The notes: generated by a model not told the origin, from the sequence alone. 64,000 bases of DNA from Flavobacteriales bacterium (GCA_047601855.1 JASGIM010000003.1:725761-789760), one strand, 5' to 3'; shown: positions 3,876 through 10,549, counted from the first letter of the stretch. A program made the numbers and translations.

Positions 3876-4208
3876 ATGAAGCCGGGCGACGTGGTGCGCT
3901 GGACCTTCATACAGGGTGACGGTCAACGCAAGTTCAGACCGGCGATCGTCCTGGGCACGGTCCCACCTTACAACGACCGGCTCGTTTGTGCCGTGAGTTC
4001 GTAGGTGCAGCGCGAAGTGCCCGGCCTGGACCTGCTCATCGATGAACGGCATCCTGACTTCCAGCGCGTGGGCCTATGCATCCCCAGCATCGTGCGGGTC
4101 GCCCAGCTGACGACCTTGCCCGACAAGGTCATCTAAGGTACCATCGGCTCCATCGGCCCTGCCACGTTGGACCTGCTGAAAGCACGGTTGCGCAACTGGC
4201 TTTCCTAG
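3876..4208 (+). pseudogene. MazF/PemK-family type II toxin, split over three frames
   Basis: Three consecutive frames together read as about 111 aa with MazF/PemK-like organisation: MKPGDVVRWTFIQGDGQRKFRPAIVLGTVPPYNDRLVCAVSS, then VQREVPGLDLLIDERHPDFQRVGLCIPSIVRVAQLTTLPDKVI, then GTIGSIGPATLDLLKARLRNWLS. Confidence 0.5.
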
Positions 4209-4687
4209 GAAGCCCTCACGGCACGAACACCACGCGGCGGCCGCTGTCCATGGGGCGGTCCCACACGGCCTGCACGTCGCGCAGCGGCACCACCTCCGCA
4301 TCGACGGTGAGGATGCCTTGCGCCGCCAGCGCGAAGAGCTTCGGGAAGGTCTCGGCCAAGTGGGCGGGTGACATGCTGCCGCCGCCGCTGCCCATCAGAT
4401 CGATCGCAGAGCTGCGCAACGTACCGCCCCGCAGCTGGATCGTGGGGGCCGGCCATCTCGCCGATCTGCACGATGCGCGTGCGGTGCGGCGTGCAGGCCG
4501 TGGCCCGTGAGCGCGTGCAGCAGGGCCTCCATCGGCGGTCCCCACAGGTAGTCCAGCACCACATGGAGCAAATATCCGCAGATGTCACAGATGACGCAGA
4601 TGGATGCCAATGCCCTGCTTGCCACGTATTCATCTGTGTCATCGGCGCCATCTGCGGAAAAGGACCCTGCGGGCTACTTTCGCCACC

Positions 4688-6328
4688 ATGGCCGAGAAGA
4701 TCGACATCGAAGCGAGCAAGAACGAGGACCACAACAAGCTGGCCGTCTCCCAGCTGCACAAGCGCCTGCAAGCCGTATACAAGGGCGGCGGCGAGAAGCG
4801 CATCGCGGCCCACAAGGAGAAGGGCAAGATGACCGCCCGCGAGCGCATCGACGCGCTGCTGGACCCGAAGAGCCCGCGCATCGAGATCGGCGCGTTCGCC
4901 GCCGATGGCATGTACACCGAGCACGGCGGCTGCCCCAGCGCGGGTGTGGTCGTCGTGATCGGCTACGTGAGCAAACGCCAGTGCATCGTGGTGGCCAACG
5001 ATGCCACGGTGAAGGCCGGCGCGTGGTTCCCCATGACGGGCAAGAAGAACCTGCGCGCACAGGAGATCGCCATCGAGAACCGCCTGCCCATCATCTACCT
5101 CGTGGACAGCGCCGGCGTGTACCTGCCCATGCAGGACGAGATCTTCCCCGACAAGGAGCACTTCGGCCGCATCTTCCGCAACAACGCGGTGATGAGCTCC
5201 ATGGGCATCACGCAGATCGCCGCCGTCATGGGCAGCTGCGTGGCGGGTGGCGCCTACCTGCCGATCATGAGCGACGAGGCGCTGATCGTGGAGAGGACGG
5301 GCAGCATCTTCCTCGCGGGCAGCTATCTGGTAAAAGCCGCCATCGGCGAGGACATCGACAACGAGACCCTCGGCGGTGCCACCACGCACAGCCAGATCAG
5401 CGGCGTCACCGACTACCAGTGCAAGGACGATGCGGACTGCCTGAAAAGATCCGCGCGATCATGGACAAGCTGGGCAAACCAAAGGACGCCGGTTTCAGCC
5501 GCGAGAAGCCCGCCAAGCCCAAGGCCGACCCGGCGGCCATCTACGGCCTGCTCCCCACCGACCGCGCCAAGCCCTACGATATGCGCGAGATCATCGCCCG
5601 CTTGGTGGACGACAGCGACTACACCGAGTACAAGGAGGGCTACGGCCAGAGCATCATCACGGCCTACGCCCGCATCGATGGCTGGGCCGTGGGCATCGTG
5701 GCGAACCAGCGCAAGGTGGTGAAGAGCAAAAAGGGCGAGATGCAGTTCGGCGGGGTGATCTACAGCGACAGCGCCGACAAGGCCACGCGCTTCATCGCCA
5801 ACTGCAACCAGAAGAACATCCCGCTGGTGTTCCTGCAGGATGTGACCGGCTTCATGGTGGGCAGCCGCAGCGAGCACGGCGGCATCATCAAGGACGGCGC
5901 GAAGCTGGTGAACGCCGTGAGCAACAGCGTAGTGCCCAAGTTCACCGTGATCGTGGGCAACAGCTACGGCGCGGGCAACTATGCCATGTGCGGCAAGGCC
6001 TATGACCCACGGCTTATTGTCGGCTGGCCCAGCGCACAGGTGGCCGTGATGGGCGGCGACCAGGCTGCCAAGGTGCTGCTGCAGATCGAGGTGGCGGCGC
6101 TGAAGGGGCGCGGCGAGGAGATCACGAAGGAGCGCGAGGAGGAGGATCCTCGGCAAGATCCGCGCGAAGTACGAGGAGAGCATGAGCCCATACTACGCGG
6201 CGGCACGGCTGTGGCTGGACGCGATCATCGATCCGATGGAGACGAGGACGTGGATCAGTATGGGGATAGAGGCGGCGCAGCAGAGCCCGGCGACGAAGGA
6301 GTTCAATATGGGGGTGTTGCAGACGTAG
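4688..6328 (+). CDS. pccB: Propionyl-CoA/methylmalonyl-CoA carboxylase carboxyltransferase (beta) subunit, two frameshifts
   Basis: Acyl-CoA carboxyltransferase sequence from MAEKIDIEASKN... through ...VVANDATVKAGAW...AVMGSCVAGGAYLP. The frame switches near 5440 and again near 6140 (GAGGAGGAGGA run). The true C-terminus ...GIEAAQQSPATKEFNMGVLQT ends at TAG 6326-6328. Confidence 0.85.
6260..6328. repeat. Left copy of an imperfect ~68-bp direct repeat (native 3' end of pccB)
   Basis: atggggatagaggcggcgcagcagagcccggcgacgaaggagttcaatatgggggtgttgcagacgtag is repeated at 7059-7125 as atggggggtcgaggcggcgagccaagaaccgacggagggagttcaatatggggtgttgcagacgtaag. Confidence 0.75.
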
Positions 6329-6354
6329 TAATTGCTGAATACAACTCCATACCG

Positions 6355-7050
6355 ATGAAAGTCCTTGACGCGCTGAAGCGCATTGATAGCCTTCTAGTCG
6401 GGCTCTTCGTGGTGTTTCTCTTTGGCTCAATCGGCTTACTCATTGCCAAGCAGTTTCCCGCGGAAAAGCACTGGCATTCAGATTTGGCCGATTACGCCAT
6501 GAATCTTGCATTGGCCTATGTAGGTACGTTCTTCTTCTTTCTACTCTCAGACATGCGAGCTGAAGCCAAGTTGGCGCAGACAATTCATCAGCAAGTGGAG
6601 TTGTTCAACGAGAGGCTGGTAACCGTCTCGAACATGGTCGTGAATTCCCTTGAGCAAGATAATCGTAGGCAAACTGACACCAACACGCTCACGCACACAT
6701 CACCGGAAATCGACGCTCTTACACGCGAAGCCCGTAATCGTGTGTCGAACGAAACGGGACGAACCTATGATGCCATCCTCAACCGAGACCTTGGCCGGGC
6801 ATACAACCAACTAGCACCATACATCGCTCAAATAGGCATTGTTGATCCAGCCCTATTCAGAGCTATAACCCGCGCTGCGAACGAACCGGTTCAACTGGTA
6901 CTGCCGGATAACATTGTGGAAAATGACCCGAACAACGCACTACCAGCAGACCGTATCGGTATCAAACTCGACCATGTCCTGACTTACTTCAAGAACTTTG
7001 CACCGCATGTGCTGCACCGCGGCGACCCGGGCTATGCACCACGCAAGTAA
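6355..7050 (+). CDS. Hypothetical 2-TM membrane protein, AT-richer than flanks
   Basis: 231 aa starting MKVLDALKRIDSLLVGLFVVFLFGSIGLLIAKQF. Two N-terminal hydrophobic helices, then a roughly 150-aa soluble tail. No recognisable domain. It lies exactly between the two repeat copies. Confidence 0.6.
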   Translation: MKVLDALKRIDSLLVGLFVVFLFGSIGLLIAKQFPAEKHWHSDLADYAMNLALAYVGTFFFFLLSDMRAEAKLAQTIHQQVELFNERLVTVSNMVVNSLEQDNRRQTDTNTLTHTSPEIDALTREARNRVSNETGRTYDAILNRDLGRAYNQLAPYIAQIGIVDPALFRAITRAANEPVQLVLPDNIVENDPNNALPADRIGIKLDHVLTYFKNFAPHVLHRGDPGYAPRK

Positions 7051-7058
7051 TCGTCATC

Positions 7059-7125
7059 ATGGGGGGTCGAGGCGGCGAGCCAAGAACCGACGGAGGGAGT
7101 TCAATATGGGGTGTTGCAGACGTAA
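7059..7125. repeat. Right, degenerate copy of the pccB 3'-end direct repeat
   Basis: See the 6260-6328 entry. Indels leave this copy out of frame (ORF 7059..7262 reads MGGRGGEPRTDGGSSIWGVADVRG). Confidence 0.7.
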
Positions 7126-7280
7126 GAGGTTTGGGCGTGCCCCCGCCTCAAATGCAGGCAGGGTCCGGCTTTCCGCTCCAAGTCCGCACTCGTCGTTCCT
7201 CCTCACTTGCGGGCTTTCCGCTGCAATCCGTCATGCGGAATATGGGGCATACCTTCAAGTAAGACATACACCTCACATAC

Positions 7281-9029
7281 ATGGCCACCAAGAGCATCAT
7301 TGATAAATCGACTGAACTCAAGGAATATGTTGCGCAGTTCGACATAGACTCATTCTGTGGTTTTTGTGCATTCTTCATCCGGAGTCGTACCAAAGGTGAG
7401 CTATCGGGCAACATGACGATGTTCAAGTCGATGCAGAAGGAACTTACATATCTCATGGCTCTGAACTACTTCAATCAGAAAAGTATGTCAAAGTATTTCC
7501 TGACAACGGATGAGACAATAGCCGAGCTTGCTCGGAAAGTCAATGACATCAAAGAGAGCTACATAAGGGATAGCTTCTCGGAGCTACGCATGAACGTGGA
7601 TAGGCCTTATCAGCGGCGTGCCTTGATACACGAACAGATGTTTCGATTCTTCTATGACAACGGCATCCTAAATTATATGGAACAAGAGGTCAACCGTATT
7701 GAGATGACCTATGGCCCGCATGACGAAGTGATCCGCATTGCAACGGGCTTGACCGTTCAGGATTATCTGGATTGTTTCGTTGCTCTCGAGAACATACAAC
7801 GTGCAAAGGAGATCGAGGCGACAAGGATATTTCGAGATCCGATAATCCAAGAAACAGTCATCCTATTGAGGGAAGTTGTAACCGATGATAATAGAGATGA
7901 ATTCATGCGTACGGTCGAGAATCTTCCCGATAACCTAAGGTCTGAATTTATGAGGTTCAACGAGTGTCCGCATAGTCATCTCAAGGTAGGAGTTGATGAC
8001 CTATCAGTATTTGTGGATAAAGTGGTTGCCGTCAAATTCCTTGACTGTATGTCGGTTAGCCCATCAGCATATGCCGGATTCAGCTACTACGATGAGTTCA
8101 ATCCATTGGAGGCTCATCCTTTATTGCGAATAGGAAACGATTACATGCATACCAATGGCAAACAGCTCCTTGTGGCCATCAATGACTTCCTGTTCACTAT
8201 TCTGAAGACTCAAAAGACCACTTCACGCGCTTGCCGGGCAGTTGAGACGCAGTTGGAGCAACAGACCAGAAACGTTGTAGAGCGATTCTTCAGCAAGGGA
8301 GACTTGAATGTCTATCAGAACTACTACGTCGCCGGTGGACTGGAGCAAGATCTCCTGATAGAGATAGGCCCTAAGGTGATTATTTGTGAATGCAAGTCGA
8401 CCCGTTTGAGAAGCCCGCTCCGGGATATAGACAAGTTCTATACCAGAGCGAGAGATGATTTCCGGCGATCCATTCAGAAGGGCTACGATCAAGCGGATCG
8501 GGTGGCAGACTTGATCACTAAGCAAAAGGAAACCATACTCTACGATCACAAAGGCAAGGAACGTGGCCGGGTCAGGCAGAGGTCACCTAAGGACGTATGT
8601 GTCTGGGTGGTTACAGACAAATCGCTTGGACCGGCTCAAGTCGATCTGTCTTACATGCTTGATTCCAGCAAAGCGCTTATGGACTACCCATGGTCACTTT
8701 GTATTGACGATCTTGAAACCTTCCTACTCTATCTGTCGAAATTTCCCAATCCATTTTCAAGACTATTCGATTATCTGCGCTTTCGACCACGTCTATATGG
8801 TCGGGTCATTTCTCCTGATGAGCTGGATATTGTGGGTTGGTATATAACGAACAGACCAAAGTTCCTAGCAGCCTGTATGAATGATTCAGACTGGGTTCTT
8901 GTTGATTTGAAGTTGCAAGGGATTTTCGACAAGGAGTATCATAGTGAGAAAGGGCTGGGATTTGATGAGCGCTTACGTGACCGACTTTGGAATGAAGATG
9001 ATTGGGAGCGCGAGGACAAGCTGGATTGA
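7281..9029 (+). CDS. Uncharacterised 582-aa protein with a PD-(D/E)xK-like nuclease motif
   Basis: Markedly AT-rich coding sequence. The motif GGLEQDLLIEIGPKVIICECKSTRL fits a D...E-x-K nuclease core. No Walker A/P-loop seen. The N-terminal ~350 aa show no recognisable family. Confidence 0.6.
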   Translation: MATKSIIDKSTELKEYVAQFDIDSFCGFCAFFIRSRTKGELSGNMTMFKSMQKELTYLMALNYFNQKSMSKYFLTTDETIAELARKVNDIKESYIRDSFSELRMNVDRPYQRRALIHEQMFRFFYDNGILNYMEQEVNRIEMTYGPHDEVIRIATGLTVQDYLDCFVALENIQRAKEIEATRIFRDPIIQETVILLREVVTDDNRDEFMRTVENLPDNLRSEFMRFNECPHSHLKVGVDDLSVFVDKVVAVKFLDCMSVSPSAYAGFSYYDEFNPLEAHPLLRIGNDYMHTNGKQLLVAINDFLFTILKTQKTTSRACRAVETQLEQQTRNVVERFFSKGDLNVYQNYYVAGGLEQDLLIEIGPKVIICECKSTRLRSPLRDIDKFYTRARDDFRRSIQKGYDQADRVADLITKQKETILYDHKGKERGRVRQRSPKDVCVWVVTDKSLGPAQVDLSYMLDSSKALMDYPWSLCIDDLETFLLYLSKFPNPFSRLFDYLRFRPRLYGRVISPDELDIVGWYITNRPKFLAACMNDSDWVLVDLKLQGIFDKEYHSEKGLGFDERLRDRLWNEDDWEREDKLD

Positions 9030-9048
9030 TCCAAGAAGTGTCATGATT

Positions 9049-9993
9049 TCATGAATTGTCTCCGTAGTGTATTGCATTCATGACATTGAGAGGAAACATG
9101 GGGTAGCTCAGGTCATCGTCTTCCAAATCGGTTCGATAGAACTTGATCATGTCCATCGCAACACCCAAATCATCTCTATCCGGTCGGCTCATAGATGCCT
9201 CCAACCAATCAAACGCTTCTGAAACATCCTCAACAAGCGCTTGCATCTTTCGATGTACTCCTTGGCGATGAATGAACTTGAGGACGGTCAACCCCGGCAA
9301 AGCCACTCTCAGGTCCCGAAGATGAATGACAGCGTCATACACGATCGAGTTTCCTGCATCGATACACAACTTGGCCAACGCGCGGATTTGTTCTTCATGC
9401 GCTCCCCCGTGAGCACTCGGAAAAAAGTTGTACACCAACGAGCTGATCACTCCGGTATGTTCTTCGGACGAGCCCGATCGCGTCATGTGAGAAACAGATG
9501 ACAGTAGCTGCAATACGGCGAGAGCAACCCTGTAATTGGTGTAGTCGGCATAGATGCCAAGCTTGCTGAGCACATCGGCCCGCTCCGTTCTTGACGTTGC
9601 ATAGTACTCCGCCTCGATCTTGATGACGTCCAGCAATATGGTGGCAGTCAGGCTTGCTTCTATTAGTGCCCCCTCCGTTAACCCATGTATCGGCTGATCC
9701 ATTAACCCTACTACCTTCTTTCTCTCATTCGCTATCGCTTGGTAGTGTAAGCTGCGGTACCGGCGGATTACACCCGGGGTCAGCTTCCTGATAAGGGGAG
9801 AGGTACGTTCGGCCTCTTCATGATGAGCAAAGCATAGGAAGGCCAAATTGTCCTCAACCGTGTTTGAAGAATCACCATCCAAGTGGTGAAGATGAACCCC
9901 ACGCTCCCGACATACGCAGCATTGCATGTGGGACTTGAACATCACTTCGTCCTCAGTAGTGCGTGACCGCACTCGTTTACTCTTCTTATGCAT
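9049..9993 (-). CDS. HNH endonuclease-domain protein with an uncharacterised ~230-aa C-terminal domain
   Basis: The N-terminus CCVCRERGVHLHHLDGDSSNTVEDNLAFLCFAHHEEAE carries the CxxC...HH...N...N...CxxHH HNH zinc-finger signature. Convergent with the 582-aa gene. AT-richer than flanks. Confidence 0.7.
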   Translation of the reverse strand: MHKKSKRVRSRTTEDEVMFKSHMQCCVCRERGVHLHHLDGDSSNTVEDNLAFLCFAHHEEAERTSPLIRKLTPGVIRRYRSLHYQAIANERKKVVGLMDQPIHGLTEGALIEASLTATILLDVIKIEAEYYATSRTERADVLSKLGIYADYTNYRVALAVLQLLSSVSHMTRSGSSEEHTGVISSLVYNFFPSAHGGAHEEQIRALAKLCIDAGNSIVYDAVIHLRDLRVALPGLTVLKFIHRQGVHRKMQALVEDVSEAFDWLEASMSRPDRDDLGVAMDMIKFYRTDLEDDDLSYPMFPLNVMNAIHYGDNS

Positions 9994-10549
9994 TGATGGG
10001 AATCTGCCCGCAATTTACCTCCAACCCTCAGGGCTACCCTCTTCGAGACGCTGTGACCTTGCCAGACAAGAGCCTCCCGCATCCGTCTTCGGGCGCTTGG
10101 TCTCCCCATTCCTCGGAAGACCAACTTGGGTTAGACCCTGTATACGCCACTTGCCGGAACCGCCCAACCTCCTACTTTCGTCCCGTCATACATACAGGCG
10201 GCAGTGCCGCCGGTCCTTCTCACCGGGAATTACGACACCCTAAGGAAGAGTTGAAGGATTACGCACAGCGTGCGCTCACATGGGCGCGGGCTGCTGTCGT
10301 AGTCCGCGCTCTTCAGGCCGTCGTAAGCCTCCGGTGAGCGGCTCGGTGGTGGTTCCGCGCCCACCACGTGAAAGCCCACACCACTCCTTGGTTCCGGAGT
10401 CCACGTACGATGCTCCGCACATGCGGTATAAGCATCTGTGCGCGCATTCGGCTTTGGTGTTCCGCGCGGTGTGTGCGGTTTCCGACAGGGTTGGCCGTGC
10501 CCCATCTGATAACCCATGCCCACGTGCCGGAATACACCCATTGAAAGCC

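Follow-up and report, generated by a model that had tools for sequence, protein, structure and literature searches.

The gene at positions 7281-9029 of a 64,000-nucleotide stretch of DNA from a Flavobacteriales bacterium (GCA_047601855.1 JASGIM010000003.1:725761-789760; the whole stretch is hereafter called the window) encodes a 582-amino-acid protein that probably acts against phages on its own, as a single polypeptide that combines a sensor with a PD-(D/E)xK nuclease. In the mechanism that we favor, the helical N-terminal region, residues 1-240, which we propose to be a sensor or regulatory region, would hold the nuclease in an inactive state until a phage cue is sensed; the metal-dependent active site would then cut nucleic acid, with DNA as the likeliest substrate and RNA as a possible one, and stop either phage replication or the growth of the host, so that the outcome would be direct clearance or dormancy/abortive infection.

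The predicted nuclease core

The open reading frame (ORF) was initially delineated in a first-pass annotation that was made from the sequence alone; it is real and intact, from ATG to TGA, and the opposite strand of the same interval contains stops throughout. The annotation placed a PD-(D/E)xK motif about two-thirds along the protein, and this motif indeed emerges as the predicted catalytic site: the segment GGLEQDLLIEIGPKVIICECKSTRL (residues 352-376, nucleotides 8334-8408) contains D357, E370 and K372, at 61-64% of the protein length. The bare pattern, tested in a loose form (D plus a hydrophobic run, followed by a hydrophobic run plus [DE]xK), recurs in 6.7% of 20,000 shuffled versions of the protein and hence is not significant, and the real protein contains two further fortuitous matches. 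We accepted the motif as real not on account of the bare pattern but because of the invariance of its residues, their placement on the predicted strands and the fold matches of the model. The alignment of 132 relatives, in which the mean column identity is 24%, shows no variation at D357, E370, K372, Q404 and E514 and very little at E326, E355, P379 and T445. A confident AlphaFold model shows a core with the alpha-beta-beta-beta-alpha-beta arrangement, made up of a helix (residues 314-336), three strands (342-350, 354-362 and 365-372), a long helix (383-414) and further strands that extend to residue 445; in this model, D357 is located within the second strand, and E370 and K372 at the end of the third.

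The fold search seeded with this model, which the first-pass annotation had recommended, returned almost exclusively restriction-endonuclease-fold nucleases, with R.BspD6I, N.BspD6I, FokI and HindIII at the top and NucS and Hjc lower in the list. Searches of the PDB sequences, with the single sequence as well as with the family profile, yielded nothing meaningful. The protein has a restriction-endonuclease (PD-(D/E)xK) fold with a NERD-type core and the catalytic set E326/D357/E370/K372, and is predicted to be active as a nuclease. Neither of the outcomes that the first-pass annotation had named as contradicting it, namely a lack of PD-(D/E)xK hits in profile or structure searches and a motif located in a non-catalytic region, was encountered. 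The likeness to the type IIS restriction and nicking enzymes (the small subunit of R.BspD6I, N.BspD6I and FokI) and to the CRISPR ancillary nucleases Can2/Card1 is limited to the fold level (7-14% identity); the recognizable DNA-recognition domain of the type IIS enzymes has no counterpart in the 582-amino-acid protein, which also lacks the CARF/SAVED sensor domain of Can2/Card1.

The protein had further been described as free of NTPase motifs and hence not a PtuA/GajA-type ATPase partner. This description is borne out by a pattern scan, which detected no Walker A motif ([GA]xxxxGK[ST]), and by Pfam, PADLOC and NCBIfam scans, none of which produced a match to an ATPase family. The sequence RFNECPH (residues 225-231), a possible Rx5H motif that the annotation suspected of being fortuitous, is just that, its R and H being retained only in relatives that are 62-70% identical and lost in the others.

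Relationships with NERD proteins, GapS1 and Upx

The designation of the protein as an orphan has to be abandoned. A word-indexed homologue search, which covered 5.8 billion clusters, detected only 8 homologues, and one more when it was repeated with a profile of 132 sequences, and a profile search run exhaustively against 1.84 billion cluster representatives recovered about 2,470 of them at E ≤ 1e-3, including 360 at E ≤ 1e-30. Most of the members found by the profile search are full length (560-640 amino acids), and the public records (RefSeq/UniProt) name them 'hypothetical protein' or 'NERD domain-containing protein'. A total of 52 contigs from several genera of Flavobacteriaceae encode an identical protein of this family, and almost all of the 80 best genome loci, which were gathered with an 8-sequence alignment, belong to Bacteroidota. 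NERD, which was among the profiles anticipated by the first-pass annotation, is the closest Pfam family, although below threshold for the window protein; the model matches 34 of 66 relatives at E ≤ 0.01, with the best E value of 5e-7, and the family as a whole is, by these profile matches, a divergent NERD branch. The PADLOC candidate families PDC-S12 and E2 were rejected as assignments because their matches, found in 17 of the 66 relatives and confined to the last 25-35 residues, are spurious and come from a SEC-C tail that some relatives possess and that is absent in the window protein. This C-terminal SEC-C zinc-binding motif (CPCGSGKKYKKCC) occupies the last ~35 residues of the 17 relatives (e.g., P0088, P0095, P0124 and P0143). 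In the viral contig collection, the patterns used brought up no phage-borne relative.

The closest sequence relative of the family is GapS1 (GAPS1, GMT-island anti-phage system 1; NCBIfam NF047931), a single polypeptide (Mahata et al., bioRxiv 10.1101/2023.03.28.534373). For GAPS1, a capsid-protein trigger and a dormancy outcome have been proven, the substitutions D313A and K328A each abolish defense in the Vibrio protein, and ~78% of the reported homologues are in Klebsiella (bioRxiv 10.1101/2023.03.28.534373). The NCBIfam GapS1 model matches the window protein with an E value of 3.8e-6 (26.1 bits; residues 193-418 aligned to model positions 167-357), and 5 of the 66 relatives match it, all weakly. 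A genuine GapS1 was obtained by searching fragments from the supplement of the GAPS1 paper against complete Escherichia coli genomes: for the homologue fragment WP_152927281.1 these genomes contained no match, and the second fragment led to WP_032260687.1, which carries the RefSeq label gapS1 and whose gene adjoins a prophage integrase. Pairwise BLASTP comparison of the window protein with WP_032260687.1 was not significant; the family profile compared with this single GapS1 sequence gave 69% (E 4e-5), and an hhalign profile-profile comparison of the family with an alignment of 22 members collected from the WP_032260687.1 family gave 96.1% (E 3.1e-9) over 242 columns, which correspond to residues 242-502 of the window protein and residues 190-460 of GapS1. 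In this alignment, E326, D357, E370, K372 and Q404 coincide with the invariant E283, D315, D328, K330 and Q361 of E. coli GapS1, of which D315 and K330 correspond, by residue spacing, to D313 and K328 of the Vibrio protein.

The two families share further features: each has a PD-(D/E)xK domain in its C-terminal half with a D-to-K spacing of 15, and both are found in mobile or variable regions. However, the window protein is ~70-130 amino acids longer than GapS1, no GapS1 counterpart was detected for the ~240 residues at its N-terminus and the ~80 at its C-terminus, so that the architectures are not colinear, and its ExK takes the place of a DxK in E. coli GapS1; moreover, the family is seen mainly in Bacteroidota, whereas the retrieved GapS1 relatives are mostly enterobacterial. 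Because only residues 242-502 align, the family is, on the sequence evidence, a remote sister of GapS1 and not a member. With respect to GapS1 itself, the recovered gapS1 gene (positions 4001-5527 of locus L081, E. coli NZ_CP018995.1) lies directly after the integrase and CI repressor of a prophage, next to ypjA; the prophage neighbors CII and Fil look P2-like, and the placement resembles a defense hotspot at the end of a prophage.

The second relationship involves the N-terminal part of the protein. Upx (PDB 9wuf) is a defense protein of ~1,212-1,272 amino acids with three domains and, toward the N-terminus, a second, atypical nuclease, and it works as a single protein (PMC13099982, PMC13601566). 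Residues 1-312 of the modeled window protein, that is, the region 1-240 together with residues 241-312, produced a structural match to Upx that goes beyond the generic nuclease fold; in the predicted model, this resemblance outside the nuclease core is specific. The flanks of the motif, in which the first-pass annotation could recognize no family, include a stretch homologous to GapS1 (residues 242-502) and one that resembles a part of Upx (residues 1-312). At the sequence level, the family profile had no match to 9wuf at E ≤ 10 among the PDB sequences. The differences from Upx are also clear: the 582-amino-acid window protein has a single PD-(D/E)xK core, in contrast to the three domains and two nucleases of Upx, and its D-to-K spacing is 15 compared with 17 (D1161/K1178) in Upx. 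Finally, the catalytic pattern of the window protein, E-31-D-13-E-x-K, matches the spacing of E535/D567/E580/K582 in ZwsA, a NERD-domain effector that has been reported to act alone and cleaves RNA; the VHS, DUF647 and S4 domains of ZwsA are absent in the window protein. Because a protein with the same spacing cleaves RNA, a DNA substrate cannot be assumed for the window protein.

Mobility, genomic context and alternative functions

The nuclease gene is compositionally foreign: its guanine-plus-cytosine (GC) content is 0.43-0.46 in three hosts in which the flanks are at 0.55-0.63, and across the 80 loci the gene has a median GC content 3.3 points lower than its flanks. It also behaves as a single-gene mobile unit, with nucleotide homology to a 70% identical relative restricted to the ORF (7278-9017). 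The 70% and 52% identical relatives, the closest ones whose context can be read, both follow directly on genes for MmeI-type type IIG restriction-modification (R-M) enzymes (loci L001, 3564-7295, and L082, 4328-7978). These MmeI genes have a host-like GC content of 0.59-0.61, and no MmeI remnant was found in the window. An obligatory pairing with an MmeI-type R-M system was rejected, given that the window holds no remnant, the GC contents differ and the homology is confined to the ORF.

These observations bear on the possibility that the protein is a solitary restriction endonuclease, either modification-dependent (type IV) or an orphan type II enzyme, which would recognize DNA directly rather than a phage protein. 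Such a role would agree with the restriction enzymes that top the list of fold matches and with the position of the two relatives just downstream of MmeI-type genes, and a type IV enzyme requires no methyltransferase partner. We nevertheless consider it unlikely: the host-like composition of the MmeI genes next to a foreign nuclease gene, and homology that ends with the ORF, imply that the pairing is not co-inherited; the all-helical N-terminal region matches only Upx and no known modified-DNA reader; and GapS1 is triggered by a phage protein.

When the ORFs flanking the 80 loci were clustered, no neighbor family was common to more than 20 of them, and the nuclease gene has no conserved partner gene. 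What recurs is the type of neighbor. Upstream of the relatives we found GajA and GajB (E values of 6e-288 and 2e-227, respectively) as well as JetC and JetD; downstream, there are genes for MobC, relaxase, coupling protein (T4CP) and TraG, often in conjugative or mobilizable elements. Further neighbors include HerA, an OLD/AriA-like ATPase, IetS, Avs2, the Hachiman protein HamB, a type I restriction enzyme, LmuA-like proteins, SNF2 helicases, pAgo-associated modules and PADLOC (PDC) candidates. After the 80 loci were collapsed to 18 lineages at ≥60% identity, the defense context persisted, with a recognized defense gene directly adjacent (±1) in at least 9 of the 18 lineages and within ±3 genes in at least 11, counts that are lower bounds because only some of the neighbors are annotated. 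Thus, the family is recurrently adjacent to diverse known defense systems in independent lineages, and the adjacent system varies even within one lineage, among relatives that are ≥60% identical. The support for the role in defense that the first-pass annotation had implied comes from this genomic context.

The arrangement of these loci is asymmetric. The upstream gene is co-oriented with the nuclease gene in 70 of 78 loci and lies within 100 bp of it in 51, compared with co-orientation of the downstream gene in 39 of 77, as at random; the nuclease gene is typically the last of a co-oriented cluster, and the pattern is kept in 15 of the 18 collapsed lineages. One proposal, which we hold to be improbable, is that the family is a portable terminal module, repeatedly inserted at the 3' end of unrelated defense operons as a shared back-up or coupled effector, and at the same time a minimal core, consisting of an Upx-like helical region plus a NERD nuclease, that links GapS1 and Upx; if true, this would amount to a novel type of plug-in component of bacterial immune systems. 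The protein might also be a portable add-on effector that cooperates with the upstream defense operon, whether Wadjet, Gabija, type IIG R-M, Hachiman or others. The tight co-orientation, with gaps after JetD of -8 to 10 bp, would fit such cooperation, yet the upstream partners are mechanistically unrelated, systems that act independently are routinely arrayed in a single direction within defense islands, GapS1 and Upx each function as single proteins, and the gene upstream in the window, 230 bp away, encodes an unannotated protein with two predicted transmembrane helices, all of which makes this role quite unlikely.

To a function in the service of the carrier mobile element, rather than in phage defense, we give little credence. 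The nuclease would in this case be an addiction toxin, an entry-exclusion or anti-plasmid nuclease, or an enzyme of conjugative DNA processing, as might be suggested by the many relatives that adjoin MobC, relaxase, coupling-protein and TraG genes and by the spread of one identical protein over 52 contigs of several genera. However, no conjugation genes are present near the window copy or its closest relatives, no conserved antitoxin-like partner was found, and the cargo regions of such elements commonly hold defense genes. Housekeeping DNA repair or recombination, brought to mind by the presence of NucS and Hjc among the lower fold matches, can be all but dismissed for a compositionally foreign, patchily distributed, single-gene mobile unit that occurs in variable defense and mobile contexts, with no conserved synteny with repair genes in the contexts examined.

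The reading that we prefer, a stand-alone anti-phage protein with a sensor and a PD-(D/E)xK nuclease, has to be weighed against several observations that speak against it. The case for a role in defense is one of association and remote homology, and our literature search found no paper and no experiment on any member of the family. The 26.1 bits of the window protein do not reach the curated GapS1 cutoff of 320 bits; its match to Pfam NERD (PF08378; residues 326-412, E 0.17) scores 12.8 bits and misses the gathering threshold of 22.1 bits; and none of the PADLOC models (2023) covers the nuclease core. The frequent tight, co-oriented position behind other systems suggests that the protein may not always act alone. 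Among the annotated neighbors in the window, there is no well-supported defense gene, the nearest candidate being an HNH-like protein with weak ZorE matches.

The gene in its window and implications

The features of the gene and its immediate neighbors are listed in the table. Directly ahead of the C-terminal helical region of the protein (residues 503-570) sits R502, which is invariant.

Table. The nuclease gene, the regions and predicted catalytic codons of its product, and the adjacent genes (positions in the window)
Feature	Position	Strand	Remarks
Complete gene, 582-amino-acid protein	7281-9029	+	ATG to TGA; GC 0.46 in a genome of GC 0.63
Residues 1-240, all-helical N-terminal region	7281-8000	+	Family-specific; no GapS1 alignment
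Residues 242-502, GapS1-homologous module	8004-8786	+	Pre-nuclease segment, nuclease core and post-nuclease segment with conserved PWS..DDLE motif
Residues 314-445, predicted PD-(D/E)xK / NERD-type nuclease core	8220-8615	+	
E326 codon, motif-I glutamate, first core helix	8256-8258	+	Nearly invariant
D357 codon, predicted catalytic aspartate, strand 2	8349-8351	+	Invariant
E370-C371-K372 codons, ExK of strand 3	8388-8396	+	E370 and K372 invariant
Q404 codon, long helix after strand 3	8490-8492	+	Invariant
Residues 503-570, C-terminal helical region	8787-8990	+	Conserved D513, invariant E514; no GapS1 alignment
231-amino-acid protein, two predicted N-terminal transmembrane helices	6355-7050	+	GC 0.51; upstream of nuclease gene, 230 bp away
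314-amino-acid HNH-like protein	9049-9993	-	GC 0.51; downstream, convergent, 19-bp gap to nuclease gene

The nuclease gene lies within a low-GC stretch at ~6300-10200 (0.41-0.56 GC in 200-nucleotide windows, compared with 0.63 for the window overall), which is interrupted by a GC-rich spacer at about 7000-7200. The 231-amino-acid transmembrane protein had no family match in any of the libraries used. The 314-amino-acid protein contains an N-terminal HNH-like motif, CxxC...HH...N...CxxHH, and produced weak matches to ZorE-type HNH domains; its N-terminal 130 residues resemble hypothetical proteins encoded on conjugative Agrobacterium plasmids, and it may be a separate defense or mobile-element gene. 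Neither of these genes, nor any other gene flanking the nuclease gene in the window, was found beside any of the 80 relatives' loci, and a two-gene system with the HNH-like or the transmembrane protein gene was rejected because neither adjoins any of these relatives.

Several additional observations concern the region that precedes the nuclease gene in the window. The carboxyltransferase gene (methylmalonyl-CoA decarboxylase alpha-like; 4582-6328, plus strand) is readable only with two frame changes; the family match is limited to the middle of the apparent 822-amino-acid ORF, and the frame of 6182-6328 encodes the true C-terminus, so that the gene is either a pseudogene or affected by assembly indel errors. 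Its last ~66 nucleotides (6262-6327) are repeated ~800 nucleotides downstream, at 7062-7124, in a copy decayed by small indels. The two copies bracket the gene for the transmembrane protein and resemble the attL and attR sites that remain when an element inserts at a gene's 3' end; a third copy was not found in the window. The spacer that follows the downstream copy is GC-rich and host-like, and within it, just upstream of the nuclease gene and on the opposite strand, the Rfam Flavo-1 RNA motif is matched over its full length (RF01705; 7158-7245, minus strand). This match, the sole copy in the window, scores 38.3 bits compared with a gathering threshold of 42, and its E value is 1e-5 locally, or 1.3e-4 when reckoned over the entire window.

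Single-protein PD-(D/E)xK defense nucleases are an already known kind, and the identification of the 582-amino-acid protein as a candidate of that kind should not surprise a specialist. If our inference holds, it would extend the known anti-phage systems by a widespread one that consists of a single gene, is missed by the 2023 PADLOC models and falls far under the NCBIfam GapS1 cutoff. The Bacteroidota include major gut and environmental bacteria, and their phage-defense repertoire has received less attention than that of Proteobacteria. The invariant residues provide ready-made catalytic mutants. Furthermore, GapS1, by sequence, and Upx, by structure, two defense proteins of recent description that seem unrelated, are connected through a shorter protein, and this link may help to define the minimal sensor-nuclease unit and to show how such sensors diversify.
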